Positions 5,679-37,998 are shown, counted from the first letter of the stretch. The stretch is 64,000 nt of DNA from Minisyncoccota bacterium (GCA_031291955.1 JARLIA010000014.1:666-64665); one strand, 5' to 3'. Program-made: numbers and translations. The notes: generated by a model not told the origin, from the sequence alone.

Positions 5679-6461
5679 TTATTTTGACGTTTGTGTATAA
5701 TTCTTTCTCAGTTTCAATGTAGCCCAAACCACTCCCCCGATCAACACTAAAATAATAATCCCCGCAATCCATTTCCACCAGCCGGAAGAGTAACCAACTG
5801 GATTAGTGTTGATTTTGGGATTGTTTTGCGAATTAATTTTGGATTGTTTCAGTACAGAAGCGAACTGTCCGTTTCCCCCGCTTTCCGGATTAGCGCCAAC
5901 ACCGGTCGTCTCATTGGAAACCACTGTTTCCCCGACTTTCGGCAAAGTCAGAGAATATATTTTGGTGTGTTCACTCTGGCTGTTGTTGTCATGGGAGTAA
6001 ATACGAAAATAGTATTCAGTTCCGGGCGTGAGATTGCCAAGACGCATGGTGTGGTTGTTGCTTTTGATATGGTCGGTTTTTCTGTCAGCCAGGTTTTGGT
6101 CGGTGCCGTAGCGGATTTCTGCGTCGGAGCTGTTGTTGGTCTGCCAAGTGATGTCGATTTCCGTGGGTGAAACGGCCTGGTATTTGACGGCGGAGATGTT
6201 GAGAGAAATAGTGTCGTTGTCGGAATCGATGGACGAAGAACTGCTGCTCGAACTCTGCGTGGCGGAAGAACCGTTCAATGATTCAACGCTGTAATTTTGG
6301 GATCCGGCCGAAGACGACGAAATGGCGCCGGTGCCTATAGTCCCGGCCTCGATGCTCCAGTTCTGACTGCTCATCGTGTCCGCCCGGCTTATAAGCGGGA
6401 AAAGAAGCAAAGCGCTCGCAAGGAAGAAATAGAGCTTTTTTTTGGCTTTGACATGGCTCAT
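5679..6461 (-). CDS. Secreted/anchored protein with Ser-rich linker, FN3-like beta-sandwich and C-terminal TM anchor
   Basis: It has a signal peptide and a poly-Ser run. The segment TPGTEYYFRIYS is FN3-like, and WWKWIAGIIILVLIGGVVW is a C-terminal TM. Confidence 0.4.
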   Translation of the reverse strand: MSHVKAKKKLYFFLASALLLFPLISRADTMSSQNWSIEAGTIGTGAISSSSAGSQNYSVESLNGSSATQSSSSSSSSIDSDNDTISLNISAVKYQAVSPTEIDITWQTNNSSDAEIRYGTDQNLADRKTDHIKSNNHTMRLGNLTPGTEYYFRIYSHDNNSQSEHTKIYSLTLPKVGETVVSNETTGVGANPESGGNGQFASVLKQSKINSQNNPKINTNPVGYSSGWWKWIAGIIILVLIGGVVWATLKLRKNYTQTSK

Positions 6462-7421
6462 TTATTTATTGCTGTTGTTAGGAGTGGTAGTTTCCGCAGC
6501 CAAGTTACTGCCGACAATGATTAAAACATCGGCGTTGGCCGGCTGGACTTCACCAGCCGGGAGATTTTGAACTTGTCCACCGACCGCTTGAGCAATTCGG
6601 CTCACAAGAGCGGAATCTTTCTGGGTCAGATCAACGACGAGAGTGTTAGTGTAATTGCCTTTGGCGTCGCCCGTGCCAATGACGGCTACGCCGGTGAGAC
6701 TGTTGAGGTTAGCCCGGGTATTACTCGTTCCCGCCACATTAGAGCCTTTTTCAATTATCACCTTTAAAGGGTTTATTGTGGCATTGCTGCTATCGGCAGC
6801 AGGAGTGGAATCGGTTTGTATTTGCATTGGGGATGATGGTGCCGGGTTTGCGGCTGAATTGGCTTGAATCGCCAGATTGCTTCCTGGTGAGTTTTGAGCA
6901 GCAGACTGATCAGCTGAGACAGTTTGACCGCTACTACTATTTTGATCGGCAAAAAGCGGGGCCACGTTCACGATCTTGTTGATGCTTGAACGATAGAGGA
7001 TGGCGACTTTGGCGTTGGCGTAAATCAGGATCTTGTCGCCATTCTCCGCGTTTTTGAAAAAAACCTGATTGCCGAGTTTGCTCTTGTCAGAGACAGTAGC
7101 AAGGGTAGGATTTTCTCCTTGCGGGAGAATCATGAGCTTCCCTACTTGAATCACCACCGACTGGGATTTTGCCTGGGTTAAGGCAACAGAACTGGGAATT
7201 TTTTTAAGAACTTTGTATTGCCGGTAATAATACGCGGCGGTGGCAATGAGACCGAGAAAAACCAGCCAGAATAATATTTTCGAAATTCTCCACCGCGAAA
7301 ATATTCTTGAAATTTTTCTTTTTTCTTTTCTGGTGAAAGCAGGCGCGTAATGCAACGCCTCTGAAGCCTGTCTTGCTTCTCTCGCCATGAAACGCTCAAT
7401 TTTTTCCGGATTTCTTTGCAT
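6462..7421 (-). CDS. Membrane-anchored hypothetical protein (paralog A) with low-complexity C-terminal region
   Basis: A basic N-terminus is followed by one TM. The conserved block GKLMILPQGENPTLATV...FFKNAENGDKILIYANAKVAILYRSSINKI is shared with 7439-7948. Confidence 0.5.
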   Translation of the reverse strand: MQRNPEKIERFMAREARQASEALHYAPAFTRKEKRKISRIFSRWRISKILFWLVFLGLIATAAYYYRQYKVLKKIPSSVALTQAKSQSVVIQVGKLMILPQGENPTLATVSDKSKLGNQVFFKNAENGDKILIYANAKVAILYRSSINKIVNVAPLFADQNSSSGQTVSADQSAAQNSPGSNLAIQANSAANPAPSSPMQIQTDSTPAADSSNATINPLKVIIEKGSNVAGTSNTRANLNSLTGVAVIGTGDAKGNYTNTLVVDLTQKDSALVSRIAQAVGGQVQNLPAGEVQPANADVLIIVGSNLAAETTTPNNSNK

Positions 7422-7438
7422 ATGGTTTTGTGGATTAT

Positions 7439-7948
7439 TTATTTGTTCCCTGCTTTGGAAGCAGTTGGAGTTGCGGGCGAGTTTTGAGAAGATGATGGAT
7501 TATTCTGGTCCATGATAAACGGAGCTTCTTTGATTATTTTGTTGATATTGGGCCGATAAAGAATCGCCACTTGAGCTTTGACGTAAATCAAAATTTTATC
7601 GCCATTGGCAGCATTTTGAAAAAAATCTTGGCCCTTCAGCTTGGTGATGTCGTTCACGGTGGCAATAGTTGGAGTTTCCCCTTGTGGAAGCTCAATCAGT
7701 TTTCCCGCTTGAGCAACAGGATCGGCTTTCGCTTTTTGGTATTGGTGATAGAAATATATAGCAACGCCGAGGATGATTACTATCACGAGTCCCCGCAAAA
7801 TTCTGGGAATTCTCTTTCCTCGAGTAATTTTGGTAAATTTTTGTCTTTCTGGTTGCTTCGACGGACGCGCCACAGAAACTTCTTCTGTAATCACCTCGGC
7901 CATATTTCTGTTTTTCTTGACCATGGACATTTCGATGTTGTCTGGCAT
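7439..7948 (-). CDS. Membrane-anchored hypothetical protein (paralog B)
   Basis: It has the same architecture and the same block, GKLIELPQGETPTIATV...FFQNAANGDKILIYVKAQVAILYRPNINKI. Confidence 0.5.
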   Translation of the reverse strand: MPDNIEMSMVKKNRNMAEVITEEVSVARPSKQPERQKFTKITRGKRIPRILRGLVIVIILGVAIYFYHQYQKAKADPVAQAGKLIELPQGETPTIATVNDITKLKGQDFFQNAANGDKILIYVKAQVAILYRPNINKIIKEAPFIMDQNNPSSSQNSPATPTASKAGNK

Positions 7949-8047: not shown

Positions 8048-11000
8048 TTACGGAATTTGCTGAAACATCCCTGTCAAATTGTGAAAAACAAATCCAGCCA
8101 ATGAGCCGCCTGCGTAACCATTTGGAATCTCTACCCAACCCAATAAATAATCGTTATAAGGTATCTGTGGGAGTGTTGCCACAGCTTGCGTTGCTTCAAT
8201 GCTCCCTTTGATAATTTGCGGTGAGTGAGTTGGGCTTAGCACTATAGCGACTTTCCGATAACATGTACCAGTGCCTGATCCCGTACACCACGCAAACGGC
8301 ACACCGGCGGCTGTGCAACTAGCGCTACAATCGGTTGTTGTATTTACACCAGTCAGATCCCACCAGTTGTCATGTGCCGTCCAATTATAAAATGTGCCAT
8401 TAAGAACCAGGGTGGCGTTGTTCGAGCTTTTCACGTAACCAGCATTTGTGGCGTTGGTAAGTCCTGCCCCATTGGCATTATCCAGTATGCCGTAGCCTTG
8501 GCTAGCGCCTTCTATCATATTATTCACCATCATACCTGTTTTCCAAGTGCTTGATGGGGGTGTTCCTGGAAAAAAGAGATCAGTTGTAAAACCTGAAACA
8601 TTATTACCTGATATATTAGTTTGTCCTGTAGTGACATCTATCCCATAATCCGCAGTTATACCATTTATTGTTTGACCGATGACTGTATTGCCAGTTATAT
8701 TCACGCCGTATGAAGCACACGTTCCGGTTCCGTTCCCTGTGCAACATGCAAACGGTACACCAGGAGCCGTACACTGTCCGTTACTTGTACTTGTTGCTAT
8801 TCCGCGAGTTCCACTTACATAATTATTTGAAATTTGTGTCCTTGCGTTTGTATTGATTGCATAATTCGTTCCAAGGCACCAATCTAGTAGTGCTATTCCG
8901 TAACCAGAACCGTTTGTAGTCCAGTTTCCGGTAACTACATTATTAACGATTTGTGTCCCAATTCCTGAAAGTACAATTCCTTCTTGTATATTTTCTACGT
9001 GATTTCCGTCCACTATCATATTCACAGAGTTGCGGTGGGAGTTTATAGCTTGCCCGCCATTAAGCGGAGGTAAGGCACCGCTAAACGAACACCCCTTAAT
9101 TGTAGGGTTCCAATCTAATTCATAACCTGCTGATGTAATGCCATTTCTAACGTTTATTCCTTTACTGTTTTCAATAGTTGCCCAATTATTTCCATTACTC
9201 AAGCTATAAGGATAGCCGGCTGGATAAGTTGTATCAGCACAGTTATACACTTCGTTATTTGTCATTAAGCCATGATCAGTCCAGTTAAAATCAAAACCGC
9301 CAACGTCACAATTAGTACTCTTGCTGTCCATAATAATTGGACTGTTAGCATATCGTATTCCAACAGCACTTTGTCTTTGTCCTGATCCTGCGCCTGTGAT
9401 TTTTACATTATCTAGTACAGGATTCTCTATAGGAATAATCCTAGTGAGAGTCATTACATATCCACTTCCCGCACTAATTGTATAATCAGTTCGAAGTCCT
9501 GTTTTTAATGTTATCGTGTTATTTCCAACAGATGCAATTGAGGACAGTTCGCTTGTTACATAATTTCCAGTTCCACAACCACCCCATGGCTGAGTGGATA
9601 TAATTTCCAGCATGTCACCAGGGGCAAATCCGGTTGAATTTGCAACATTAAGCGTTAGCGTTGTTGTAGGCACAAACGTATTAGTTACATCCAAAGGGCC
9701 GGTGACTGTGGTTGTCGTGGTTGTAACTGTGCCTGATATCATTAAAGCTGTATAAGGTGGGCCGCATGTACCAGCATGATAACCCGTGCAGCATCCATAA
9801 GGAGCGGCGGCGGCTGTACATGCGTTATTGCCTGTAGAAATCAAATTTACACAGTCAAGAGCCAGGTCTTTAATAGTTAAATTATTGATATTTGTATAAA
9901 CTATATACTCATTATCTTTGTAAGTTTTTGATACATCGCCTAAAAGTGTGCCTCCAACATTTACTAATGAATTACCGGCTGCTTGAAGAGCTGCAAAATC
10001 ATCAGTAGAATCATCTCCCTTCGCTCCAAACCACTCTGGATAGACCGTCCCGCCATTGCTGAACGTCACGGTTCCCGTCCCTGCAAATATCTGGTAACGT
10101 CCAGCGGTTGGTATGGACATGCTTAGCGTGTGTCCCGTAGTAGTGATCGTCGCTCCCTGCATTGGCCTTAAATCGCAGGTGAGAGCCAGATCACCCGTAA
10201 GCGTCACGGGCGCGGTCAGATAGACCGTTCCGGCAAAGTTCGCATCGGCTGTAAGTTGGGCCAGGGTGTTGGCGGTTATATACGTACCTCCTATTTTTAC
10301 CGAGCCATCAAATTGCGCATTCCCGTTCACCTCCAATGCCGCTTGGGGATTGGTCGTACCGATTCCCAAGTTTCCTTGGATCGCCACATTGCCGTCGGCC
10401 ATCAGCTGGCTAGCATAGAGCGAACCGAAAGTGGCGCCACCAACCACCGACAATTGAGAACCGGGAGACGTCGTTCCGATTCCTACTTGACCGGAACTGT
10501 TAACCGTCAGTCCTTCCATTCCTCCGCCCGCGCTGATATGGAGCGGATTGAGAAGCGATCCAGTGTTGGTGGTGATGTTCATGAGATATCCTGTTCCGGA
10601 ATTTCCAGTGGTATCTGAGAGACTAAAAAGATCATTCGAGCCAGTACTCGCGCCGAAAGTCAAACCAGCCTTATTGCTTCCCATCGAAAGGGTGGTGTTT
10701 TGAGTGGGATTCCCCAGTTGGCTAAAAGGCAGCGTTCCGGAGAGACTGCCGGCGGTGGTAGCTGTCGTTGCATTGGTTGCATTGGTTGCGGAAGTCGCGC
10801 TGGTGGCTGTCGCGGCGTTGCCGGAAATACTGATGCCGTAAGTGCCGGAGATGAGAGCATTAGCAGTCAGCGTGCCGGAACCGGCCGAAAGAGTTTGTCC
10901 ACTCCCAAGACTAAGAGCCTGATCCAATTTGGACGCGGTGATGGCGCCATTGTTGAGACTTATGGTAACACCGCCGCCGAGGATTGAGTTGCTACCGCCG

Positions 11001-11758
11001 GCAACAGTCAGGCCGGAAGAGCCGGTGATATCGCCCGTCGACTCATTGGCCCATTTATTGGAACTGTTCATAACCAAAACATCGCCCGCGGCCGGGTTGG
11101 AGATATCAGTGTCAGTAAGAGCCGAGAGAGTGGTCACGCCGCCGGAGCCGACTATTTCCGACCAGCCGGTGTTGGTAGCGGTGCCGGAAGTTTTAATGTA
11201 AAGCTTGTCATTGGTCGAATCGATAGCCATATCTCCCACCGACCCGGTCTGGACGCCATTGGGATCGCCAGTGCCCTGATAGACACTGGTGCCATTGACA
11301 GCATCGGCGTTAAAAGCGTAGGCGGCCGCACCGATCCGTTGTCTCGGAGACATCTCAACATCGGTGCCAACAGTGATGCCGGCGTAGTAAGTGTCCTGGG
11401 AAAAATCCACCGTCATCGTGTTGCCGGATCCCGAACCGAGGAGCACCGTAAAATTACCATCTTTGACAGCGACCGCATTGCTGTTAGCAGTAGTGTAATT
11501 GCCTGTCCAGACCGGCGTGCCGCCGGTGGCAGTGGTGTAAATTTTAAACACCATGTCATAATTGCCGTCAGTCGCGATAGCTCCACTGAAAGATTTTAGA
11601 ACACCGAAGTAGGTCAGTTCCTTGTTAATACCGGAAGCGGCTTTCACGTTATGGAAAACAAAAAGACCTCCCAAGAGAATCAGGGAAATCAAAAGATATC
11701 TGAAAAGTTTCGAATTCCGCGGTTTAATTAAGAGAGAGGGTAGGCTTGGGAATTTCAT
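8048..11758 (-). CDS. Giant secreted protein with tail-fibre-like repeats and a pectate-lyase-fold (right-handed beta-helix) depolymerase-like domain
   Basis: It has an N-terminal signal/TM. Tail-fibre-type repeats (VGIGTTSPGSQLSV, LGIGTTNPQAALEV) and the beta-helix signature YPEWFGAKGDDSTDDFAALQAA are present. Three Cys-rich repeats of the form CTA(A/P)GVPFA(C/W)CTG(N/S)GTGTC also occur. Confidence 0.6.
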   Translation of the reverse strand: MKFPSLPSLLIKPRNSKLFRYLLISLILLGGLFVFHNVKAASGINKELTYFGVLKSFSGAIATDGNYDMVFKIYTTATGGTPVWTGNYTTANSNAVAVKDGNFTVLLGSGSGNTMTVDFSQDTYYAGITVGTDVEMSPRQRIGAAAYAFNADAVNGTSVYQGTGDPNGVQTGSVGDMAIDSTNDKLYIKTSGTATNTGWSEIVGSGGVTTLSALTDTDISNPAAGDVLVMNSSNKWANESTGDITGSSGLTVAGGSNSILGGGVTISLNNGAITASKLDQALSLGSGQTLSAGSGTLTANALISGTYGISISGNAATATSATSATNATNATTATTAGSLSGTLPFSQLGNPTQNTTLSMGSNKAGLTFGASTGSNDLFSLSDTTGNSGTGYLMNITTNTGSLLNPLHISAGGGMEGLTVNSSGQVGIGTTSPGSQLSVVGGATFGSLYASQLMADGNVAIQGNLGIGTTNPQAALEVNGNAQFDGSVKIGGTYITANTLAQLTADANFAGTVYLTAPVTLTGDLALTCDLRPMQGATITTTGHTLSMSIPTAGRYQIFAGTGTVTFSNGGTVYPEWFGAKGDDSTDDFAALQAAGNSLVNVGGTLLGDVSKTYKDNEYIVYTNINNLTIKDLALDCVNLISTGNNACTAAAAPYGCCTGYHAGTCGPPYTALMISGTVTTTTTTVTGPLDVTNTFVPTTTLTLNVANSTGFAPGDMLEIISTQPWGGCGTGNYVTSELSSIASVGNNTITLKTGLRTDYTISAGSGYVMTLTRIIPIENPVLDNVKITGAGSGQRQSAVGIRYANSPIIMDSKSTNCDVGGFDFNWTDHGLMTNNEVYNCADTTYPAGYPYSLSNGNNWATIENSKGINVRNGITSAGYELDWNPTIKGCSFSGALPPLNGGQAINSHRNSVNMIVDGNHVENIQEGIVLSGIGTQIVNNVVTGNWTTNGSGYGIALLDWCLGTNYAINTNARTQISNNYVSGTRGIATSTSNGQCTAPGVPFACCTGNGTGTCASYGVNITGNTVIGQTINGITADYGIDVTTGQTNISGNNVSGFTTDLFFPGTPPSSTWKTGMMVNNMIEGASQGYGILDNANGAGLTNATNAGYVKSSNNATLVLNGTFYNWTAHDNWWDLTGVNTTTDCSASCTAAGVPFAWCTGSGTGTCYRKVAIVLSPTHSPQIIKGSIEATQAVATLPQIPYNDYLLGWVEIPNGYAGGSLAGFVFHNLTGMFQQIP

Positions 11759-12060
11759 TTTATTTTATTTTATTTTAATAATTTTTTTAGCTCGCGCCGG
11801 TCAATCTGATTGAGTTTGTGCTCCACGACGTTTTTCAATCTCTCGTCCATCTTCTCATCTATCTTATTGATTTTTCCATCCACAATATTCATCTTTTCGT
11901 CCATTCCGACAAAACCTTTTTATACCATCCTTGCTAGCTCATCAATCATCATTTCTTTGTTTTTCTCCATATTTTTTAAAATGATTTTACACTTTTAATT
12001 TTAACACCCCCAAAAACTGTGTCAACAAAAAAAACCACTGTGGATAATCCAATCCAAAAC

Positions 12061-12607: not shown

Positions 12608-15600
12608 TTATTTCAATCCGGCCATGACCACCACCGTAGCTTTCCTTTCGAACTTCCCCCACTTGACCAGACGGCCTTTCAAGGCCGTGACAACCGCCTT
12701 GATAGCCACGTAATACATAAGCTGGCGATAATAGAAACGCTGGAGCGGCAACCAAAACAGCAGTCGCCAATCTTCTTTGTGTTCAAGGAAAAACGGGATG
12801 GCCGCCGTAACCAGATCGACCAGCAGGAAGAATATATAGAAAATAAGAAATTTCTTGAAAGCGTAAAGCGGAGAAATGTCGCCGGCCGGATGAAAATAGG
12901 TCTGCCAAGCTCCCCAGAAAAGCGTAATGACCATCATTAGATCCATGAGAGGCGAGACGAGAGGAAAGAAAATCTGGAAGATAAAGATATTTGGAATGCC
13001 AAGAAAGCCCAGCGCATTGTATTCCTTTTTCACAGCCAGGTCCTTGTGTTTCCAGGCAGTTTGGAACATCCCATACATCCAACGGAAACGCTGCTTGATA
13101 AAATTTTTAGTGGAATCAGGCGCTTCGGTATAAGCAATGGCTTCGTCGTCATAGGCAACCTGATGCCCCTGACGGATAATGCTAAACGTCAGATCTGCAT
13201 CTTCCGCCAAAGTGTCCTCGGAAAATCCTCCAGCCTCCAAGATAGCGCTTCGCCGCCAAGCACCGACCGCTCCGGGCACCACCGTAATGCAATTAAGCGC
13301 TTCAAAAGCCCGCCGATCCAGGTTTTGACTGGTGATATATTCCAGCGCCTGCCAACGCGTGAGAATATTTATCCGGTTCCCCACCTTGGCGTTGCCAGCC
13401 ACCGCCGCCACTCTCCGGTCCAGAAAGCAGCGCACCAGCTTTTCGATCGTATCCGATCGGAAAACCGTATCCGCGTCGAGAGTCACAATTATTTCCGCTT
13501 TGGTCATCGCGATGCCGAAATTGAGCGCTGATGATTTCCCGCCATTTTCTTTCCTGAAGATTTTGACCCAGCCGTTTTTCCCGAAATTATTTTCTAACAC
13601 CGCCCAAGTGCCGTCCGTTGATCCATCGTCAACCACGATAATATTGAAATTCGGATAAGTCGATCGCAAAATGGAATCAACCGTCTTGACAACAACTTTT
13701 TCTTCATTGTAAGCGGGAATGATGACGCTAACCGAGGGTTTGTAGTGGACGGTTCGGGAAAGTTTCCGCCAAGCACCCCTCCGGGAATGAGTCCACTGGG
13801 CAATCGCCAGAAGTCCGATAAAAATGAACCGAGCCGTTCCCAGAATGATTCCAACCTTAAACATCAGCAGCATAAATTGATTGAATCCGGAAGCGACCTG
13901 GACCGTTATGTCGTTGGCATAAGCGATAGCTCTTTCCTCGAACGTAATTTTCGGCATCACACTGTCTCTCGAAATCCCGAGCAAATCGGAAACCGGGACA
14001 ATCTGAAATCCCGCCGCCCGCAATCCCTCGATTATTTTCGGCAAAGCTTGGACTGTTTCTTCACGGTTGCCGCCGCCGTCATGGAGCAAAACGATGTTTC
14101 CCTGTCCGTTCTTGGCGGCCGTAAGAACCCGATTGACAATCTGAGAAACGCCGGGACGTGTCCAATCAGATGGATCAATATGCATCGAAACGGTGTAATA
14201 TCCAAAATTACTGGAAGACAATGGCTTCACCTGATCGGGCGTGGTCGGTTCAATATCTTCGGCGTAAGGCGGGCGAAAAAGCAAGGTTTTGTGTCCGGTG
14301 ATCGCTTCGATGACCCGCTGGGTGGCGCCTACTTCAAAAACAAACTGGGCGCCGGTTATCTTGGAAATATCTGGATGAGTGTAAGTATGATTGCCAATTT
14401 CATTGCCGTTGACATATTCCTCTCGGACTATATCCGGACTGAAATTGGCGTTGACGCCTATTACGAAAAAGGTGGCCGAAGCATTCTCTTTCTTTAGAAC
14501 GTCCAAGATTTGAGGGGTATATTTATTGTCCGGGCCGTCATCAAAAGTCAAGGCGATTTTTTTACTGCCCGTCCCCCAGCGATTGATTACGTAGGGAGAT
14601 GGGTAGCTCATGATCTGAGTTTTTTTTATGAGTCCCGAAGCGGAATCATAGTTTATTTGGCGCCAACCGCCCTGGGGCGTTTCAGTCACCCGCAAAATCT
14701 CACCCTGACCCTGATAACTGATGTCATAACCATATTGCATATTGGATAACGCTTGGGCGGCGGAAGCGTCCAGATTTTTGTCATTTATAAAATCATTCCA
14801 GACGGTCGGATCTTCCGCTCCGAGCCGCCAAAGAGCGAACCCCGCCGGAGCGCCCGACCGTTCGGCGGCTACCATCTGGTCGTAAACAGAAACACCATCT
14901 AAAAACCAGACATGATGAAGAATATTGTTGGCGTCGGTATAATCAAAAGTCGGATTAAGCGACTGACTGTCGAGATTCACCGCAGCGTTCGCTTTTTTAG
15001 CTTCCTGGATCGCCTGCTCGAAAGTGAGATCAATTCCCGAACCCGAGGGAGCGGGGTTGTCTCCAGACCAGTCATAGCCATAGTTCCCCAGAGAAATAAT
15101 GAATTTTTTGGCTGAAACCTCGGAAAATCTGTTCGCAATTTCCGCCTCAAACCAAGGCTGGGAAGCGATCGGCCCGGGTCCGGTATCATAAACATCATGT
15201 TCGTCATATGCCATCAGGATCAAATAATCGGCGTTCTGACTAAGCGCCTTGTAATTGAATGACGAGTCATCCAGGGGCACATTCATGGTCACCTCCAGTC
15301 CCAGCGGATGGAATTTTTGATAAAGTTCCTGCATGAACAACACCAAATCGGGCTGATCCTGATTTGACACATTCTCAAAATCAATTGAAATTCCGGCAAA
15401 TTTATTCTGCTGGACGTAAGTTAAAAGACTGTCCGCTGTTTTGGTTCGCAAGGCCGGGTTTTCCAACATCGCGGATAGGCGCCCGCCGTCAAAGGCCTGA
15501 GTCTGATTGTTGAAATTATCGATAAGAGGCGTAATGCGCAAGCTGGGACGATTGGCTTGGATATAACCCCAGACATCCGATTGGTAAGACTGGTTGTAAG

Positions 15601-16057
15601 GCGTCACCGTACCCTGGTTGTCGGAAAGATTGAGCCACTCGGGCACCAACTGATCAATACTGCCCAGATTCTGCTTAAGCGACACCAAGCTGTTGTCGTC
15701 CCAGTTGACAAAATAGGCCAATGTTTTGGGTTTTGTTGTGGTCGGATCAACCGGATCCATCGCCTGTCCGACCAGAAGAGCGTTCTGCATAAATGGGATT
15801 TGAAGACCAGGCGCGCCCAAACTGGCCGGGGCGCTCGCGGCCGCAATGCCAGAAGCTGACTGCGGCGCGCTCCGATAAACTCCGGCCGGATCCTGGATAT
15901 CCAGTTTTGGAAGTTTGGGCGGAATAATGACACTAGCCAAAGTGACGCTAAAAACTGTCGCTAAAAAAAGGACGAGTGGAACAAGCGTCCTTTTGGAATA
16001 GCGCCAGCGTCGGTGTTTCTTATCATAAAAAATTGGAGGTTTTTTTTGCGCAGTCAT
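12608..16057 (-). CDS. Multidomain exopolysaccharide enzyme: N-terminal TM, GH18-like domain, NodB/CE4 polysaccharide deacetylase, TM segment, processive GT2 synthase (PgaC/IcaA/NodC-like), and C-terminal TMs
   Basis: The GH18 domain shows FAGISIDFE. The CE4 domain shows TFDDGPD and GNHTYTHP. The GT2 domain shows VIIPAYNEE, VVDDGSTDGT and QRFRWMYG (the QxxRW motif). Confidence 0.7.
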   Translation of the reverse strand: MTAQKKPPIFYDKKHRRWRYSKRTLVPLVLFLATVFSVTLASVIIPPKLPKLDIQDPAGVYRSAPQSASGIAAASAPASLGAPGLQIPFMQNALLVGQAMDPVDPTTTKPKTLAYFVNWDDNSLVSLKQNLGSIDQLVPEWLNLSDNQGTVTPYNQSYQSDVWGYIQANRPSLRITPLIDNFNNQTQAFDGGRLSAMLENPALRTKTADSLLTYVQQNKFAGISIDFENVSNQDQPDLVLFMQELYQKFHPLGLEVTMNVPLDDSSFNYKALSQNADYLILMAYDEHDVYDTGPGPIASQPWFEAEIANRFSEVSAKKFIISLGNYGYDWSGDNPAPSGSGIDLTFEQAIQEAKKANAAVNLDSQSLNPTFDYTDANNILHHVWFLDGVSVYDQMVAAERSGAPAGFALWRLGAEDPTVWNDFINDKNLDASAAQALSNMQYGYDISYQGQGEILRVTETPQGGWRQINYDSASGLIKKTQIMSYPSPYVINRWGTGSKKIALTFDDGPDNKYTPQILDVLKKENASATFFVIGVNANFSPDIVREEYVNGNEIGNHTYTHPDISKITGAQFVFEVGATQRVIEAITGHKTLLFRPPYAEDIEPTTPDQVKPLSSSNFGYYTVSMHIDPSDWTRPGVSQIVNRVLTAAKNGQGNIVLLHDGGGNREETVQALPKIIEGLRAAGFQIVPVSDLLGISRDSVMPKITFEERAIAYANDITVQVASGFNQFMLLMFKVGIILGTARFIFIGLLAIAQWTHSRRGAWRKLSRTVHYKPSVSVIIPAYNEEKVVVKTVDSILRSTYPNFNIIVVDDGSTDGTWAVLENNFGKNGWVKIFRKENGGKSSALNFGIAMTKAEIIVTLDADTVFRSDTIEKLVRCFLDRRVAAVAGNAKVGNRINILTRWQALEYITSQNLDRRAFEALNCITVVPGAVGAWRRSAILEAGGFSEDTLAEDADLTFSIIRQGHQVAYDDEAIAYTEAPDSTKNFIKQRFRWMYGMFQTAWKHKDLAVKKEYNALGFLGIPNIFIFQIFFPLVSPLMDLMMVITLFWGAWQTYFHPAGDISPLYAFKKFLIFYIFFLLVDLVTAAIPFFLEHKEDWRLLFWLPLQRFYYRQLMYYVAIKAVVTALKGRLVKWGKFERKATVVVMAGLK

Positions 16058-19579: not shown

Positions 19580-20797
19580 TTATTGCGCCTTATTTTCCAG
19601 TTTTTCATAAAAGCCATCCGGCAAATCACCGTCCAGCTTGAAAAAACTAACACCGCCCAAATGGAAATTTTTCGCGAGAGTGATTTTGTCGCCAATAGCC
19701 TCGGCATCTTCGAAAGTGACCAGATGCTCGCCATCCGCCGTTTGGAAAGTGAACCTCAATTCCCCGCCGTTCGTCCGGCTTGGAGTCGCTTTGGCCGCCT
19801 TAGCTTCGGCCAGAGCCTGTGAATAGTCCAAACTTTTTAGTTCGGCGTAGTGCCAGCCAGCGGACGTTTTTACAATTTTAAATTCCCAACCATAAGTCGG
19901 GATGCCAAGCGTTAGTTTTTGGGGAGAAATATACCGCAGGGAATATTCAACGACGCTTTTTACCCAAGATGCGTCAGCGTTCGGCGCCGCCGGCAAATCT
20001 TCGGCAATTTCAAAAGTCGCTGCCCGTTCGGTTTGGAGCGTCTGGTCGTAGGCCATGATCTGAACGACGTCGCAATATTTGTTCATAGCCGAAAAATCAT
20101 TAGCCCAACTCATAGCCCGTATTCCGGCAAAACCCGGCGGCGGAGCATCCTGAGTCCGGGCTTCCACGGCGCATTCCAACGTTTTTCCCATCGGCGCGAT
20201 TTTTTGATGAAGCACTTCCAGAAACACGCTGAAATTGTCCCGGTCGGCGATATTTTTTCCTTCATAATCGATATCCACGCCGGCAAAATTATTTTTTGTC
20301 AGCATACTCGCGATAGCGTCGATGTTTTTTTCCGCGAGATTGCTATTTACGAATGTCTGATGCATCGCCGCCGCGTCCGTCCAAAGAATAGTTGGAACGA
20401 TTTTTATATTTTTCCGGCGGATTTGGGAAAAAAGTTCCGGCCAGGGCGCGACGTTTATTTGCGCTTTATCGATCAAGCTTCCATCCGAAGCTACGCCGTA
20501 CGCGAAAGGATAAATCTCGCTGAAATGATTCAAATTGTTTTCAACGGAAGAAACGCCGACCGCCTTGGCCCAATACGTCACCCAGCCGGAAACGACAAAA
20601 GGATTGCTATTATTTTCAGAAGAAACGGCTTTGGTTGGCAACTTCTTGTTCCGACTGGCCGGCACCGGCTTATCTTTTGATAAAGTCAGAGTTGATATTT
20701 TTGAATTAAAAAAGAAAAAAGAAACAACCTCGACCATACCGGACGCCAAAATCATAACCAAAACGACAAGAACAAGATATTTATATTTTCTTTTCAT
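19580..20797 (-). CDS. Secreted glycoside hydrolase family 18-like protein
   Basis: An N-terminal TM/signal is followed by the GH18 catalytic motif FAGVDIDYE. It is similar to the N-terminal domain of 12608-16057. Confidence 0.6.
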   Translation of the reverse strand: MKRKYKYLVLVVLVMILASGMVEVVSFFFFNSKISTLTLSKDKPVPASRNKKLPTKAVSSENNSNPFVVSGWVTYWAKAVGVSSVENNLNHFSEIYPFAYGVASDGSLIDKAQINVAPWPELFSQIRRKNIKIVPTILWTDAAAMHQTFVNSNLAEKNIDAIASMLTKNNFAGVDIDYEGKNIADRDNFSVFLEVLHQKIAPMGKTLECAVEARTQDAPPPGFAGIRAMSWANDFSAMNKYCDVVQIMAYDQTLQTERAATFEIAEDLPAAPNADASWVKSVVEYSLRYISPQKLTLGIPTYGWEFKIVKTSAGWHYAELKSLDYSQALAEAKAAKATPSRTNGGELRFTFQTADGEHLVTFEDAEAIGDKITLAKNFHLGGVSFFKLDGDLPDGFYEKLENKAQ

Positions 20798-33246: not shown

Positions 33247-33429
33247 TTATTTATATTTACGCACCCCTTTGAATTTTTCACCATTGGATTTTTGATCCAT
33301 AAATAAATGAGTGTCTGTATCTATTTTGACCCATCTTTTAATTTTAGGATTAAAAACCTGCTCTCTATTTTTAACTTCCCCTCTTCGCGCGTTATCTCCG
33401 AATGGTTTATTTTTCGCCATATCCATCAC
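33247..33429 (-). CDS. Small basic hypothetical protein (60 aa) overlapping the hsdS 3' end
   Basis: The ORF is present but has no assignable family. Confidence 0.3.
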   Translation of the reverse strand: MMDMAKNKPFGDNARRGEVKNREQVFNPKIKRWVKIDTDTHLFMDQKSNGEKFKGVRKYK

Positions 33430-34831
33430 CCCCTTTCTCTATAAATTCTTCAACCTTTCTTTTTGCTTCCTCTAATAATTCTTTTGATTTTTTCCGCGCT
33501 TCGTATGACTGAATCACAAGTTCAGTGATTTTTTTCTGGATTTCTTTTGGTAGAATTGGAATCAAAACATTTTTGATCTGCTGCGGTTTCCAGTGCGCAA
33601 TAACTGATCCGCCAGCATCACGCTCAGCTTGCATTTGACCAATTTGAGAATTCAAACACAGTGCCAAATATTCTGCCTCAACTTCTTTGCTTTTCAACTT
33701 CAGGCGCAACGTTCCGCCCGACACAATTCCTTGAATATCTTTTTTCAAAACAAAAGCAATTCCCGGGGTTGCATCTTTTGTTAGCAATATTTCACCTTTT
33801 TTTGGTTCAAAATCATCTTTCAATTTTTCATAAAGCTTATCACTTAGATATTTTTGATTGCTTTCCGTGATTCCGAATTTTGTCATGCTACTAACCCGGA
33901 TAAAAATCTTACCTTCTTCTTGATATTCTTCCGCCCCAACTTCAATTCCCTTTTTCATCGAAACTAAATCGCCCAACTTGTGCACATTATGTTTTGCAAC
34001 CCTATCTTCTATTATCTTATATTTCGGCTGAAAATATTCCGCATCGATTCGATGTGCAATTTCGATATCGGAAAGATTTATGATTGATGATAACTTTTCT
34101 ACATTATCAAAACCGTCCAATTCCAATTCTCCCAAAAGTAAGTTTTCGGCTTGTTGATATTGCGTTTTAGCTTTCTCAAATTCATCCAAGCCAGCCAACA
34201 CTATCATTTTTATTTTTTGTTGAGCTTCAAGATTAACTTCGGGAAGAATTATTTTTTCAAGGCTATACAAATTCATGTGTCCTTGAACGCCTCCACTTGA
34301 TCCTCTATCGATCTGAAATTTTCCATATTTTGAATTCAGAAAAGCGGCTAAATATTCTGGCAATAGATTCTCTTTTGGTTTTATCAAAATAATATCCGCG
34401 GAATTTGCAACGGGATGATTCTCTGTAACGACACTAGCATTGCCAATTGACCCACTTCTGGCAAGCAAGACAAACCCCGGATAAACCTGGCTCTTTTTCA
34501 GTTTTTTATGAAATTCTTCGTCAATATAAACAATACCATTTTCAAAATCTGTAACAAATTCATCAACGTTTTGTGTTCTCAAAAGTGGAACTCCATCATC
34601 GCAAAAATGGCTCGCCATAGAAGACACAAAACCAACATCAATCTTTGGCGCCATCTCCTCCAATGTTAGTAACTCAAATTTTTTAAGATTTTTTTCCAAA
34701 TCCAAATATTCCGGCTGATAATATTCAGCATCCATCCGCATCGCGCCTTCGAGTTGAGATTTTTGAATTATGGAAAAATTAGTCATAAAATTTTTGAAAT
34801 ATTCCCCACAAATGAACGTATTAATAGGCAT
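33407..34831 (-). CDS. hsdS: Restriction-modification specificity (S) subunit, HsdS-like with two target-recognition domains
   Basis: The conserved N-terminal block RMDAEYYQPEY and the central repeat RIDAEYFQPKY are present. The true start may be the internal Met (MTNFS...). Confidence 0.8.
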   Translation of the reverse strand: MPINTFICGEYFKNFMTNFSIIQKSQLEGAMRMDAEYYQPEYLDLEKNLKKFELLTLEEMAPKIDVGFVSSMASHFCDDGVPLLRTQNVDEFVTDFENGIVYIDEEFHKKLKKSQVYPGFVLLARSGSIGNASVVTENHPVANSADIILIKPKENLLPEYLAAFLNSKYGKFQIDRGSSGGVQGHMNLYSLEKIILPEVNLEAQQKIKMIVLAGLDEFEKAKTQYQQAENLLLGELELDGFDNVEKLSSIINLSDIEIAHRIDAEYFQPKYKIIEDRVAKHNVHKLGDLVSMKKGIEVGAEEYQEEGKIFIRVSSMTKFGITESNQKYLSDKLYEKLKDDFEPKKGEILLTKDATPGIAFVLKKDIQGIVSGGTLRLKLKSKEVEAEYLALCLNSQIGQMQAERDAGGSVIAHWKPQQIKNVLIPILPKEIQKKITELVIQSYEARKKSKELLEEAKRKVEEFIEKGGDGYGEK

Positions 34832-34950
34832 AATATCAAGCTGTGGATAACTCCTTGCATAATCATACAGCTATGGTATTATGAGCTTGGTACTTGTAAG
34901 GGCTTTGGCCCTCTCACGGTTAAAACGTATAAACCGTAGCAAGTGCCAAA

Positions 34951-35442
34951 TCAATCATCCTCCATATTTCCTGCATGCAGGATTTTTTTATTGTTAAATT
35001 TGTTACCTGAATTTTTTTGATTGTTTTTCCAAAAAGGAATTAGGCTCCAAAAAAATTTATTTCCACCTTCAATTTCTTTAACTATTATTTTTATTCTCGC
35101 ACCATTTATTATAGCAACAAACCCATAATAACTAACTTCAACCATTTTATATTCCCATCTAGAATTAATTTTTTGTTGTTCAAACTTCCTTGTTTCATAA
35201 AATTCTTGTAAGGTATTTGACTTTTCCAATATATGAGGAGCGAGTTTTAACAACTTCAATCTTATATATTGATCACTTTTTATTCGAGCCTTGTTTTTAT
35301 TTTTGAATTTCAAATGTTCCAATCCCTTCGTATTAAAAGAAATCTTTCCACCCAAATAAGGACAATGAATTTGGCCTATTGTTTTGTAATAATTTTCGGC
35401 CTCTTCTTTTACCTTTAAAAATTTTATTTGATCAATCTCCAT
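34951..35442 (-). CDS. Hypothetical 163-aa protein between the RM methyltransferase and the S subunit
   Basis: Its start overlaps the stop of the upstream gene. No motif was recognised. Confidence 0.45.
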   Translation of the reverse strand: MEIDQIKFLKVKEEAENYYKTIGQIHCPYLGGKISFNTKGLEHLKFKNKNKARIKSDQYIRLKLLKLAPHILEKSNTLQEFYETRKFEQQKINSRWEYKMVEVSYYGFVAIINGARIKIIVKEIEGGNKFFWSLIPFWKNNQKNSGNKFNNKKILHAGNMEDD

Positions 35443-37355
35443 TATTTTTTCATAAACTTCAAAAACTCCTCCGCAATTTCGTCTAGATCGTGATCAATAA
35501 TTTTCTTTCCGCCGGCATCATACATAACATTCCCCTCGCTGTCTTTTTTATAGATATAATCCCCTGAATTGTCTTTGCCGCCTTTCTTGGAAACTGCCAT
35601 AAAAATCGGATAATCTTCGGGGATTTTTTCATCCTCATTCCATTTTTGCAAAAACAGAACTGATGTTTTTGTGCCGGTGTGCGGTTTGAAGGTGTTGTCA
35701 TGCAGTCCCACCACTGCCAACAGACGCGCCTTGCTCAAAACAAACCGCCGCACATATTCCATCTGCGTATTGTTCAAAACTCCTTGCGGCAAAACGATTG
35801 CCATCCTTCCGCCGGGCTTGAGAAAATTAAGATCGCGTTCAATGAACAAAACGTCGCGTGAAACTTTGTTTTGATGCTTGGATGTTTTTTCAAAATTTTT
35901 GTCATGTTTAAATCCAAGATCATAACGATTCAAAATCACACCTTTGATCTCTCCAGCAAATGGCGGATTGGTCAGCACGATGTCAAAATTAAAGTCAGTC
36001 ATTTTTTCCTGGTTTCTTCGGTTCTCATCAGAATCCTTGAATGTTCGCAAAAACGGTCGGAATTTCGCATGCGCTTGTTCATTCCAAACTTCACTGTCCA
36101 GCGAGTTAGCATTGGTCACATTTGTTTTACCATCGCCTGCAATGAGCATCATAGCTTTTCCAATTTTCACTGAGCGCGGATCAAAATCAATTCCGTACAA
36201 ATGTTTTTCCGCATAATCTTTTTGCTTTGCTTTGTAATCATCTTCGAAATTTTTCTTGTTTATTTCTTTGTCCCACACATATTGCATAGCATGCAACAAA
36301 AATCCGCAACTGCCCGCAGCAGTATCAATGATGAAATCTTTTGAAGTCGGCGCCAGCATTTTCACCGCCATGTCAATCACATGACGCGGCGTGAAATATT
36401 GGCCTTTTTCGCCTTTAGCATCCAAGTTAATCAGATATTCAAAGGCATCATCGATCACCTGCAGATTAGAACCAAAAAGGCGATATTTTTGCAAAAGAGA
36501 AATTGCCGGCACGATGGCATTTTCCGGAATTTCTATTTCGTCATTCGACTTGAAAACATCACGCCACTGATTTTTGGAATCCTCAAAAAGCCGCTGAATA
36601 TTGTTTAGATTTTCCTTGTTAGAAGCGCCGGCAATCACCCGAAATCTGCGATTTTCATTTCTAGGCGTTTCGATTTCATCATACAGCTTGGCATAAATAA
36701 GTTTGAAAATTTCATCAAACGAATCCACGCCGCTGTTGGCCAAAACAACTTCTTGCAAATCATAAATGAGTTGTTGCAAATTAGGAATTTCATCAAGATC
36801 ACTATATACGATTTTCTTTGAACGTACATCATCAACCGTTTCGTTAAATTTGGGAATTTCCGGCAAGTCCTCAAAAAGATTTGGGTCGGTTCGTAAAATA
36901 TTATTTTGAAGTTTTCCGTCTGTCAAAACGAGAATTGGCGCACCGGTCGCATTGGCGTAGCTTTTCAATTGCCCCAGACCATCTTTCACGTCGGGTTTTT
37001 TCACTTCAACCACAAGATAGGGAGTTTTGCCGTCTTCACGATAAATCACAATGTCCGCACGTTTTTTCCCAATCTCTCGCCCAAATTGCACATCTACTTC
37101 CACATCCATCCGGTCAAGTGGATATTTATAAAAATTTAATAATTTATAAATCATGAGTTGACGAACTATCTCCTCCGGCTTAGCTACTAACTTTTTATTT
37201 CTTTTTAAACATGGCAAATAAAACTTTCCTTCTTTTTCAAAAAGATCCAAGACTTCTTCAATTTTAATTCCCTCAAAAACAGAAAGTCCATATTGCATAT
37301 CCGGATTGCGAAAAATTTTCCCCAAAATTTCACTTGTCTTTTTTTGATCCGCCAT
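35442..37355 (-). CDS. Fused restriction-modification enzyme: N-terminal HsdR-N-like PD-(D/E)xK nuclease domain plus gamma-class N6-adenine DNA methyltransferase (BcgI-A-like / Type IIB-IIG)
   Basis: The N-terminus shows RADIVIY...PYLVVEVKKP...APILVLTDG, matching the HsdR N-terminal fold. The MTase motif DIVLTNPPFAG is present. At 637 aa there is no helicase and no separate hsdR. Confidence 0.7.
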   Translation of the reverse strand: MADQKKTSEILGKIFRNPDMQYGLSVFEGIKIEEVLDLFEKEGKFYLPCLKRNKKLVAKPEEIVRQLMIYKLLNFYKYPLDRMDVEVDVQFGREIGKKRADIVIYREDGKTPYLVVEVKKPDVKDGLGQLKSYANATGAPILVLTDGKLQNNILRTDPNLFEDLPEIPKFNETVDDVRSKKIVYSDLDEIPNLQQLIYDLQEVVLANSGVDSFDEIFKLIYAKLYDEIETPRNENRRFRVIAGASNKENLNNIQRLFEDSKNQWRDVFKSNDEIEIPENAIVPAISLLQKYRLFGSNLQVIDDAFEYLINLDAKGEKGQYFTPRHVIDMAVKMLAPTSKDFIIDTAAGSCGFLLHAMQYVWDKEINKKNFEDDYKAKQKDYAEKHLYGIDFDPRSVKIGKAMMLIAGDGKTNVTNANSLDSEVWNEQAHAKFRPFLRTFKDSDENRRNQEKMTDFNFDIVLTNPPFAGEIKGVILNRYDLGFKHDKNFEKTSKHQNKVSRDVLFIERDLNFLKPGGRMAIVLPQGVLNNTQMEYVRRFVLSKARLLAVVGLHDNTFKPHTGTKTSVLFLQKWNEDEKIPEDYPIFMAVSKKGGKDNSGDYIYKKDSEGNVMYDAGGKKIIDHDLDEIAEEFLKFMKK

Positions 37356-37356
37356 A

Positions 37357-37998
37357 TTATTTGTTTATTTTAGAAAGATTTAGAATTACCTTGCCTTGAA
37401 ATTGAACTTCGCCGGGAATAATTATCATTTTTTCATAAGCCGGATTTTCCGGTTGCAAATATCTTTTTCCGCCATCAGCGACAAAGCGCTTTACAGTCGT
37501 GCCCGCATCCGTTCGCGCAATCACAATATCACCGCTTTTATATTCTTTTGATTCTTTGATAAGCAGACTATCACCATCATCGATTCCGGCATTAATCATA
37601 GAATCTCCAGAAATTTGAATAACAAAAACTCTATCTTTTGATTCATTTATTTTTTCATTTTTTAAAACTTTTTCAGATATTGGGAAAAAGGTGAATGCAT
37701 TAGCAAAAGAATCGAGATATGATCCGCCGGCGCTAACGCCAGCCATTTTAATCAAAGGATCTCTTCCAATTTCCTTATAACCCAAAGGCAAAATTCTTAT
37801 CCCTCTCGCCTGACCATCTTCTCTTTTTATATATTCCTTTCTTTCAAGCGTATCTAAAAAGTTTATAACCGACTGGTTCGAAGATACGCCCAGCTCTTCC
37901 TTAAAATCAGAAATAGACGGCGGAAAGCCGGAACTTTCCAAAAATGTGTAAATAAATTCTAAAACTTTTTTTTGTTTTGGGGTAAGTTTAAAACTCAT
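37357..37998 (-). CDS. lexA: LexA-type repressor (winged-helix plus S24 peptidase)
   Basis: A LexA-like N-terminal HTH is followed by a C-terminal S24 domain with ISGDSM (Ser) and TTVKRF (Lys). Its stop is 1 nt from the RM start codon. Confidence 0.8.
   Translation of the reverse strand: MSFKLTPKQKKVLEFIYTFLESSGFPPSISDFKEELGVSSNQSVINFLDTLERKEYIKREDGQARGIRILPLGYKEIGRDPLIKMAGVSAGGSYLDSFANAFTFFPISEKVLKNEKINESKDRVFVIQISGDSMINAGIDDGDSLLIKESKEYKSGDIVIARTDAGTTVKRFVADGGKRYLQPENPAYEKMIIIPGEVQFQGKVILNLSKINK

Follow-up and report, generated by a model that had tools for sequence, protein, structure and literature searches.

We analysed a 64,000-nucleotide stretch of DNA from a Minisyncoccota bacterium (GCA_031291955.1, JARLIA010000014.1:666-64665; hereafter the window), and identified at 8048..11758, on its minus strand, a gene encoding a cellular fibre of an unnamed N-terminal domain family that carries a tailspike-type head. 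We estimate a probability of roughly 0.6 that this protein, the target, is a Sec-exported and probably trimeric fibre, which would consist of a docking base, a horizontally acquired, depolymerising tailspike-type head and disulfide-locked cysteine knobs. The most novel element of the protein is a four-cysteine module, which is unnamed in the libraries that we queried, yet widespread. The source is assigned to the candidate phyla radiation (CPR) by the NCBI name of its metagenome-assembled genome (MAG), 'Candidatus Pacebacteria bacterium'.

The gene is a single open reading frame (ORF) with an ATG start, coding for 1236 amino acids (aa) plus a stop, and the NCBI protein P4L62_04035 of the same MAG is identical to it except for the start, being called 22 aa shorter. 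A sequence-only reading of this interval had described a 1236-aa surface protein that combines phage tail-fibre repeats, a depolymerase beta-helix and three Cys-rich repeats. We confirmed the ORF, albeit on the minus strand, and located every motif string that had been quoted; a plus-strand reading of 8048-11758 is ruled out, its translation being riddled with stops. The quoted motifs are not artefacts of Gly/Thr/Ser richness, as they exceed their expectation in shuffled sequences and the Cys copies are conserved as protein.

Head, base and junction of the fibre

The head (aa ~573-1236) comprises a right-handed beta-helix, an inserted beta-barrel and a C-terminal domain (Table 1), and opens at aa 573-594 with the N-cap motif (W/Y)FGAKGDG.TDDT.A.Q.A, of the Pect-lyase_RHGA_epim type. 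An AlphaFold2 (AF2) model of the head, made with a 29-sequence alignment, predicts the right-handed beta-helix with a predicted local distance difference test (pLDDT) of 82.9 and a predicted template modelling score (pTM) of 0.82. Structural comparison of this model gave figures of 30.0 for a Geobacillus phage pectin lyase, 29.9 for AlgE4, 29.2 and 28.3 for K1 capsule lyases, 27.5 for RbmB and 27.2 for AP22 gp54, with the longest alignments, of 449-462 residues, to phi297 gp61 (28.8) and LKA1 gp49 (28.5). The best matches found by Foldseek among viral models (BFVD) were phage tailspikes. At the sequence level, a profile of the 29-member head family (the target and 28 others, 24-35% identical overall) matched the LKA1 tailspike gp49 (4ru4, E 1.6e-32) and the AP22 particle-associated lyase (4y9v, E 1.6e-18) in the PDB, and, at their N-caps, many tailspikes, AlgE epimerases and glucanases. 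The full protein, as a single sequence, matched PHROG 7458 'tail spike protein' (E 6e-10), and nothing useful was returned from the PDB when the head or the N-terminal half was searched as a single sequence.

We identified very few close relatives of the head. When 5.8 billion proteins were searched by word index, with aa 545-1236 as query, only two were recovered, P0049 and P0050 (51-53% identity by BLASTP, 58-59% in the alignment), from MAGs labelled Negativicutes and Syntrophobacteraceae. Both lie beside ordinary cellular genes, one flank being visible in each case as a contig end cuts both genes, and P0049 adjoins a cluster for polysaccharide biosynthesis, which includes Bac_transf, a Polysacc_synt flippase and several glycosyltransferases. 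When 1.84 billion representatives were scanned exhaustively with HMMER, there were 237 matches at E <= 1e-3 and 28 at E <= 1e-10; the weaker ones mostly covered the N-cap only, and about 100 matches in the representative library were limited to the cap. Third in closeness is P0052, with 40% identity along the entire head and an N-terminus that matches PHROG 1640 'tail protein' (E 3e-29). Because P0052 carries this phage tail-protein N-terminus, the head family spans real phage tailspikes as well as cellular proteins.

The C-terminal ~140-aa unit of the head is an uncharacterised autonomous domain, with the consensus ..NAT.AG.AKT.N.......ATDN.WDLTGV.T...EY.KV......G..I..G..A.SQA.A.LP......G.VEIPN.Y.GGSL.G..F....G. 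Its profile found no match in the PDB, and four stand-alone versions (P0079, P0080, P0081 and P0111) had no match in PHROG.

The opposite end of the protein belongs to a different family. The target fits the pattern of this family, in which a signal-peptide-like start is followed directly by a ~120-aa GIN...PR...AYAFNA domain (the N-domain), with the consensus GIN..L.YQG.L....G....DG.YDMVFKIY...GG...WT......G.F.V.LGSG.GN...VDF..D.YY.GI.VG.D.EM.PR...GAA.YAFNA. We read aa 1-40 as a likely Sec signal peptide, which may instead persist as an uncleaved signal anchor: V-K-A is followed in the target by A-S-G-I-N, and an A-x-A/A-x-G-I-N junction is conserved in the homologues ahead of the conserved domain. 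Thirty homologues have at least 90 aligned residues (24-76% identity), with invariant residues Y39, G66, L72, F84, P103, R104 and A113 (numbered by the first alignment row), and those that have a source name are mostly CPR bacteria (Levyibacteriota, Moranbacteria, Parcubacteria and the 'Patescibacteria group').

Members of the N-domain family share their base and differ in their heads. Residues 14-250 of the target are 55-90% identical to P0002, P0003, P0004 and P0005, whose C-termini differ, and identity to P0002 is 90% across aa 151-200. On the shared base we found a GDSL/SGNH esterase (P0004, P0006), a pectate-lyase-like domain (P0008), Peptidase_S74 intramolecular-chaperone heads (P0007, P0009, P0012 and others) and, as a weak match (E 0.005), a possible H-type lectin (P0007). 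Peptidase_S74 (PF13884) is annotated in 15 of the 47 other homologues, scan-confirmed in three, and absent from the target (Pfam scan, E <= 1). This head repertoire is essentially that of the distal modules of phage receptor-binding proteins. We could not find conserved synteny of the N-domain genes, the context of P0005 being different and beside a T2SSE ATPase. On the contigs with P0005 (L168 and L169), two independent assemblies, the N-domain member lies 650 bp downstream of this T2SSE (PilB-type) ATPase gene, which hints at a possible link of the family to type IV pilus loci.

One further member of the family is P0218, encoded at 6967-10845 of L290 (JBKQLC010000065.1), in a MAG labelled Syntrophobacteraceae. 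It has a signal peptide, the N-domain and a collar like that of the target, and a different head; identity is 71% for its cluster representative, P0003. The gene is surrounded by many small unannotated ORFs, RuvC, DUF932 and helix-turn-helix (HTH) repressor-like genes and a type I HsdR, and the contig is either a mobile element or mis-binned. A copy of the four-cysteine module occurs on another contig (L018) of the same MAG.

Between base and head, the stalk contains two copies of the unit GN[VI]GIGTT.P...L.V.G, where 0.006 would be expected in shuffled sequences. The GIGTT unit is found in 43 of 48 homologues, in up to 16 copies, and at no fewer than 120 loci in viral contigs (IMG/VR); nine of ten viral ORFs sampled with it match PHROG tail-fibre families 9942 and 18345, bearing out its description as a tail-fibre-type repeat. 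The target's own stalk is too short and has no PHROG match, and it gave one marginal match among the isolated phages of INPHARED. The sole tandem repeat reported by Tandem Repeats Finder was a 9-bp unit (10767-10789).

The head is compositionally foreign, because the GC content at third codon positions (GC3) falls at its conserved cap. Thirty-one genes of the window have a GC3 of 0.53 +/- 0.07; that of the target is 0.50-0.68 over aa 1-580 and 0.12-0.38 from aa 581 to ~aa 1100, and the downstream genes are back at native values. The switch lies within ~20 codons of YPEWFGAKGDD, the most widely conserved stretch of the superfamily, and the cap is a putative recombination junction. The genes of P0049 and P0050 were not the donor of the head, because their GC3 (0.52-0.62) is like that of their own contigs. 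An IMG/VR search for a viral donor, made with a 3-sequence alignment, returned only distant relatives (best 27% identity), and tblastn of the head against the 50,697 phage genomes of INPHARED found no match.

Table 1. Features of the target gene and its upstream region, in window positions, with residue numbers of the 1236-aa protein.
Feature	Positions	Strand	Remarks
Whole target gene	8048..11758	-	1236 aa + stop; NCBI start 22 codons later
Promoter-like site TTGACA-16 nt-TAAAAT, TG extension	11998..12025	-	11/12 matches, by consensus only; ~240 nt upstream of ATG
aa 1-40: basic N-region, hydrophobic core YLLISLILLGGLFVF, V-K-A/A	11639..11758	-	sequence inspection
Conserved N-terminal domain, aa 41-160	11279..11638	-	common to ~30 large secreted proteins with different heads
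Collar motif DPNG..GSVGDMAID..NDKLYIKTSG...TGW, aa 165-202	11153..11266	-	sequence
Gly/Thr/Ser/Ala-rich stalk, aa 203-492	10283..11152	-	alignments at recurring places of many giant surface proteins
Tail-fibre-type repeat 1, GQVGIGTTSPGSQLSVVGG, aa 423-441	10436..10492	-	pattern search
Tail-fibre-type repeat 2, GNLGIGTTNPQAALEVNGN, aa 462-480	10319..10375	-	pattern search
Neck, aa 493-572	10043..10282	-	74-78% identity to P0050; native-like GC3
Beta-helix N-cap YPEWFGAKGDDSTDDFAALQAA, aa 573-594	9977..10042	-	YPEWFGAKGDD cap; GC3 drop just after, from 0.53-0.60 to 0.12-0.38
Right-handed beta-helix, aa 595-1089	8492..9976	-	beta-barrel 'rider' inserted at ~aa 670-780
Cys module 1, NNACTAAAAPYGCCTGYHAGTC, aa 644-665	9764..9829	-	within 26-aa insertion, helix/rider junction
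Cys module 2, NGQCTAPGVPFACCTGNGTGTC, aa 993-1014	8717..8782	-	20-aa insertion, turn between distal helix rungs
C-terminal ~140-aa domain, aa 1090-1236	8051..8491	-	also stand-alone 110-203-aa proteins
Cys module 3, DCSASCTAAGVPFAWCTGSGTGTC, aa 1143-1166	8261..8332	-	22-aa insertion, loop of C-terminal domain

The four-cysteine module

The head is interrupted by three copies of a Cys-rich motif, CTAAAAPYGCCTGYHAGTC (aa 647-665), CTAPGVPFACCTGNGTGTC (aa 996-1014) and CTAAGVPFAWCTGSGTGTC (aa 1148-1166). In the third copy CC is replaced by WC, and an extra Cys four residues upstream restores the number to four. The expression C-x8-[CW]C-x7-C matches the target three times, against 0.0002 expected from 20,000 protein shuffles; 12 of the 19 Cys of the protein fall inside the three modules, and no further copy of the motif was found in six frames of the window. 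Copies 2 and 3 are alike at 16 of 19 residues but share only 4 of those 16 codons, and because the residues agree while the codons differ, the motif is conserved at the protein level and is not a recent DNA repeat. A mobile repeat at the DNA level, similar to a miniature inverted-repeat transposable element (MITE) or a Rickettsia palindromic element (RPE), was also considered and is ruled out, the copies being 58-68% identical in DNA with saturated synonymous sites.

None of the 28 other aligned members of the head family, P0049 and P0050 included, has any of the three modules, which are inserted in frame. The AF2 model has four low-confidence stretches, three of which fall at the modules, the fourth being only three residues long. 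The modules probably arrived together with the head, because their GC3 (0.37-0.47) is head-like rather than native-like.

The module has the consensus N-x-x-C-T-[GA]-x-G-x-P-[YFW]-x-C-C-T-G-x-G-T-G-[TS]-C, to which copies 1 and 2 fit in full and copy 3 with WC, and it resembles two half-repeats, C-T-G-x-G-x-P-Y-x-C followed by C-T-G-x-G-T-G-T-C. We searched for it with a degenerate DNA pattern that fixed only the four Cys, the Pro and the first base of the codon following it, the Thr and three Gly, and recovered at least 120 loci in species-representative genomes and 30 viral contigs. The genome loci carry, among the matches listed, labels of Binatia, 'delta proteobacteria'/Desulfobacterota, Acidobacteriota, Planctomycetota, Nitrospirae, Chloroflexia and Myxococcota. 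Positions that the pattern left free are strongly conserved across the 132 genome matches listed (Thr2 in 93, Gly5 in 75, Tyr/Phe/Trp8 in 110, Thr16 in 92 and Thr/Ser18 in 99), and an Asn recurs three residues before the first Cys. This conservation in independent matches, together with the shuffles, rules out a compositional artefact. About seven of the matches look spurious by eye (Streptomyces, a Lachnospiraceae MAG and two Gammaproteobacteria-type loci).

We additionally identified the module in proteins that are unrelated to one another, with four copies each in a 289-aa secreted protein and a PETase-like hydrolase, and three in an SBBP/NHL propeller. Most of the printed N-termini of 153 module-bearing ORFs are signal-peptide-like. 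A Pfam census of 95 of these ORFs recorded Beta_helix in 6, SBBP in 5, NHL in 5, DUF4215 in 3 and type IV pilin N_methyl in 2, as well as lectins, Ig-like domains and an alpha/beta hydrolase. No Pfam family covers the module itself in this census, the Cys-rich motif of the target likewise had no match in Pfam, and there is no NCBIfam model. A profile of 117 module copies found nothing in the PDB at E <= 10, and text searches of the literature found no paper on the Cys pattern and none on CPR tailspike-like proteins.

Small type IV pilin-like proteins with the N_methyl motif GFTLLE (L035:439-936 and L071:2384-2848) also carry the module, close to their C-terminus. P0050 (L001) carries a ~70-aa Cys-containing C-terminal extension ending in LSVTGTGSDIISWVQNNQ, and a similar tail is encoded at L111:5115-5225, where a canonical Cys module stands immediately before it (CTNMGAPYGCCTGSGTGQC GTISVSGTGSDVISWAQQ).

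The Cys count is even in all copies of the module, copy 3 with its compensating Cys among them, and three similar Planctomycetota-labelled sequences have lost both Cys2 and Cys4. Because of these even counts and this joint loss we weakly favour two disulfides per module, possibly with 1-3/2-4 pairing.

Proposed function and competing explanations

We propose that the fibre is built like a phage receptor-binding protein and owned by the cell. The N-domain (~120 aa) would presumably dock the fibre on the envelope of its producer, and the Gly/Thr-rich stalk with its GIGTT repeats would project the head outward. The head would most probably bind an acidic polysaccharide along the groove of its helix and cleave it by metal-independent beta-elimination, with Tyr849 and His908 as candidate base and acid and with Arg871 and Asn910 nearby. 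Recombination at the YPEWFGAKGDD cap would have grafted this head on a native stalk, and the three 20-26-aa Cys modules probably form small loop-inserted knobs, of two disulfides each, that would decorate or stabilise the exposed head. The analysis shows the architecture and fold of the protein, its homology, the insertions, the break in composition and the lack of phage genes nearby; from these we infer cleavage of the signal peptide, trimer formation, retention at the surface, the lyase chemistry and its substrate, and formation of the disulfides. For a CPR bacterium, the role in attachment to a host cell put forward in the sequence-only reading is plausible.

The candidate active site is suggested by conservation and by comparison with two characterised lyases. 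Five polar positions are conserved in the head family, and the target keeps all of them: E737 (28 of 29 members), Y849 (29 of 29), R871 (20 of 29), H908 (27 of 29) and N910 (24 of 29); the pair G848-Y849 is also among the family-conserved beta-helix residues. In the K1 lyase, Tyr311 and His373 are essential (Y311A and H373A abolish activity), Arg397 neutralises the carboxylate and catalysis is metal-independent (PMC8822698). From Tyr311 through Arg333-His334 to His373 of this enzyme the spacing is 22 and 40 residues; it is 21 and 40 in LKA1 gp49 (Tyr438, Arg459-His460, His499) and 22 and 37 in the target (Tyr849, Arg871-Asn872, His908). The catalytic residues proposed for LKA1 gp49 are His494, Asp497 and His499, with Arg459 and Arg329 nearby (Olszak et al., PMC5701251). 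In profile alignments His499 corresponds to H908 of the target, Arg459 to R871, Asp497 to N906, His494 to Q903 and Arg329 to T730. This pattern suggests a lyase chemistry for the head.

Several observations weigh against the interpretation as an exported, depolymerising fibre. The LKA1 triad is not conserved in the target, because Asp497 and His494 align with Asn906 and Gln903, and Tyr/His beta-elimination on a uronic-acid-containing polysaccharide is argued from spacing and conservation only, rather than from a superposition. The Pfam matches of the full protein to K1-lyase_Rider (E 0.001) and Beta_helix (E 0.004) are both below gathering scores. The N-domain has no match in a whole-protein Pfam scan and its profile none in the PDB, leaving it without a recognisable fold relative. 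Two of its homologues have labels from outside the CPR, the close P0218 (Syntrophobacteraceae) and the more distant P0044 (34% identity; Omnitrophica), and because of these labels either the N-domain is not strictly a CPR feature or the binning is imperfect. We found no sortase signal, S-layer-homology domain or C-terminal transmembrane segment in the target, and because such an anchoring motif was not found the protein may simply be released. Finally, the Cys module may be metal-binding rather than disulfide-linked.

The target lies among chromosomal-type genes, which encode FtsW/RodA, TrmD, a class-A penicillin-binding protein (PBP1A), aspartyl-tRNA synthetase (AspRS), a Fic protein, proteins with a CBS and an SPW domain, two membrane proteins that are paralogues, an Fn3 protein that has a transmembrane segment at its C-terminus, the 1149-aa GH18/deacetylase/GT2 fusion and a second GH18. 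We looked for phage genes around the target and found none: capsid, portal, terminase, tail-tube and baseplate genes are absent within ~10 kb on either side, and the unannotated neighbours have no significant match to a PHROG structural family, their only PHROG match being a weak one of the SPW protein to holin (E 5e-4). No tRNA genes were found in the window.

The suggestion in the sequence-only reading that the protein might be a domesticated phage tailspike is thus upheld in part. In its favour, a genuine phage tail protein (P0052) belongs to the head family and the codon composition of the head is foreign. Against it, neither IMG/VR nor INPHARED yielded a close phage donor, the flanks are without phage genes, and the two closest relatives of the head stand beside ordinary cellular genes. 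It is very improbable, moreover, that the gene encodes the virion tailspike of a prophage or tailocin remnant, or that it is an assembly chimera of a CPR gene and foreign DNA, as the sharp GC3 break within the ORF, the phage protein P0052, the RuvC, DUF932, HTH and small unannotated ORFs around P0218 and the holin-like match of the upstream SPW-domain gene might suggest. The housekeeping flanks, at native GC3 on both sides, rule out a prophage context, and a signal peptide is, as a matter of general knowledge, unusual on a virion protein. An assembly chimera is ruled out by P0050, which aligns across aa 466-1236, and P0002, which aligns across aa 14-640, both bridging the junction.

An enzyme that acts on the producer's own polysaccharide, with a head that trims, epimerises or releases exopolysaccharide in the manner of WceF, RbmB or AlgE, is an unlikely but more serious contender. 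In its favour are the 1149-aa GH18/deacetylase/GT2 synthase-like fusion encoded ~850 bp upstream on the same strand, the second GH18 at 19580-20797, and the polysaccharide-biosynthesis cluster beside the closest homologue, P0049. However, the target has an apparent promoter-like site of its own, and the SPW-domain gene separates it from the synthase. The combination of GT2, deacetylase and GH18 would suggest a neutral polymer of the N-acetylglucosamine (GlcNAc) type, an atypical substrate for a lyase, and a long fibre with exchangeable and horizontally acquired heads better fits variable external targets. We regard as distinctly unlikely a non-catalytic adhesin, in which the beta-helix would be a rigid binding platform like that of pneumococcal PfbA and the Cys knobs would contact the ligand. 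The replacement of LKA1 Asp497 and His494 by Asn and Gln speaks for such an adhesin, as do the three surface insertions, which are specific to the target protein, but the groove residues E737, Y849, R871, H908 and N910 are conserved in a family that is only 24-35% identical, in a pattern like that of an active site.

We additionally recorded several features of the surroundings of the gene. A 44-codon ORF, MDEKMNIVDGKINKIDEKMDERLKNVVEHKLNQIDRRELKKLLK (11770-11904, minus strand), lies between the promoter-like site and the target ATG and ends 11 nt before the latter, and the target start has no obvious Shine-Dalgarno sequence ahead of it. Directly downstream, at 5679-7948, three genes on the same strand may be co-transcribed with the target. 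Two of these encode paralogous, N-terminally anchored membrane proteins of 169 and 319 aa, with a common ~60-aa motif (GKL..LPQGE.PT.ATV.D..KL......F.NA.NGDKILIY..A.VAILYR..INKI), and the third encodes the 260-aa Fn3 protein, which has a signal peptide in addition to its C-terminal transmembrane segment. The upstream fusion (12608-16057, minus strand) joins a GH18, a polysaccharide deacetylase and a GT2 domain similar to chitin or poly-N-acetylglucosamine (PNAG) synthases; together with the separate GH18 gene, also on the minus strand, it may make and process a GlcNAc-type surface polymer. Elsewhere in the window, a low-GC island at 33407-37998 (minus strand; GC 0.35-0.38, GC3 0.31-0.40) carries the gene of a type I specificity subunit (Methylase_S) together with genes for an LPD3-domain protein and for a fused HSDR_N/N6_Mtase/Eco57I-type methylase, and adjoins a LexA-like repressor. 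This island is probably a horizontally acquired restriction-modification module.

Comparison with known systems and significance

The closest characterised proteins are the O-antigen lyases LKA1 gp49 and phi297 gp61 (4ru4 and 4ru5). The target resembles these in its family-profile match, in the retention of the residues equivalent to His499 and Arg459, and in the beta-barrel 'rider' that interrupts the helix. In contrast, identity is ~16-17%, Asp497 and His494 are replaced, the target has three Cys-module insertions, and its C-terminal domain could not be related to that of LKA1, as the profile of the former has no PDB match. LKA1 gp49-like proteins have an N-terminal particle-binding domain and a phage context, whereas the target has a signal peptide, a cellular N-domain and housekeeping flanks. 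The target would work like a phage depolymerase tailspike, and it is homologous to the LKA1 gp49 family and not a strict member of it, because the proposed catalytic Asp is not conserved and the particle-binding domain and phage context are missing.

The capsule lyase of Klebsiella phage K1 (7w1c; PF24149, K1-lyase_Rider) shares with the target the spacing of Tyr, Arg and His, but there is no significant sequence match to 7w1c, Arg397 has no obvious counterpart, and the K1 enzyme is part of the virion. Pantoea stewartii WceF (6tgf), Vibrio cholerae RbmB (9ozd) and Azotobacter AlgE4 (2pyg) act on the exopolysaccharide of their own producer, and are without the tail-fibre stalk, the head-swapped N-domain family and the Cys modules of the target. 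Bacterial 'tail fibre domain-containing' giant surface proteins (Peptidase_S74, PF13884) have the same N-domain and GN[VI]GIGTT.P repeats; these end in Peptidase_S74, whereas the target ends in a depolymerase-type head.

For the four-cysteine module, the nearest parallel is the Myxococcus cysteine-rich repeat and DUF4215, which we take to be likewise short, Cys- and Gly-rich units of secreted Myxococcota/Desulfobacterota-type proteins. The module, with its C-x8-CC-x7-C arrangement, invariant Pro and CCTG.G.G.C core, differs from DUF4215 in its Cys pattern. Unlike DUF4215, the module is found as single loop insertions in unrelated folds as well as in tandem.

We tentatively advance a broader interpretation, which we consider possible rather than probable, in which the gene brings together a linked pair: a cell-borne recognition fibre with exchangeable heads, and a previously unnamed and structurally unsolved Cys mini-domain. 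If the former holds, the base would dock on the cell and heads would be swapped by recombination at conserved necks, so that depolymerases, SGNH esterases, Peptidase_S74-type tips and lectins would set which glycans a CPR cell recognises or breaches. If the latter holds, a 22-residue C-x8-CC-x7-C unit would have been inserted repeatedly, and in frame, into the loops of secreted proteins that are otherwise unrelated, among them beta-helices, NHL/SBBP propellers, pilins, hydrolases and lectins, in many phyla and their viruses, as a portable knob that is either disulfide-locked or metal-binding.

The module is common in lineages of soil, sediment and groundwater and in viral contigs; its definition would annotate hundreds of secreted proteins, and would flag a small, probably very stable and insertable peptide scaffold. 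The GC3 junction at the YPEWFGAKGDD cap is a clean case of module exchange at a conserved neck outside phage. With its constant base and its exchangeable, horizontally acquired head, the target fibre is a concrete and clonable candidate for the means by which CPR/Patescibacteria recognise and breach the surfaces of their partners.

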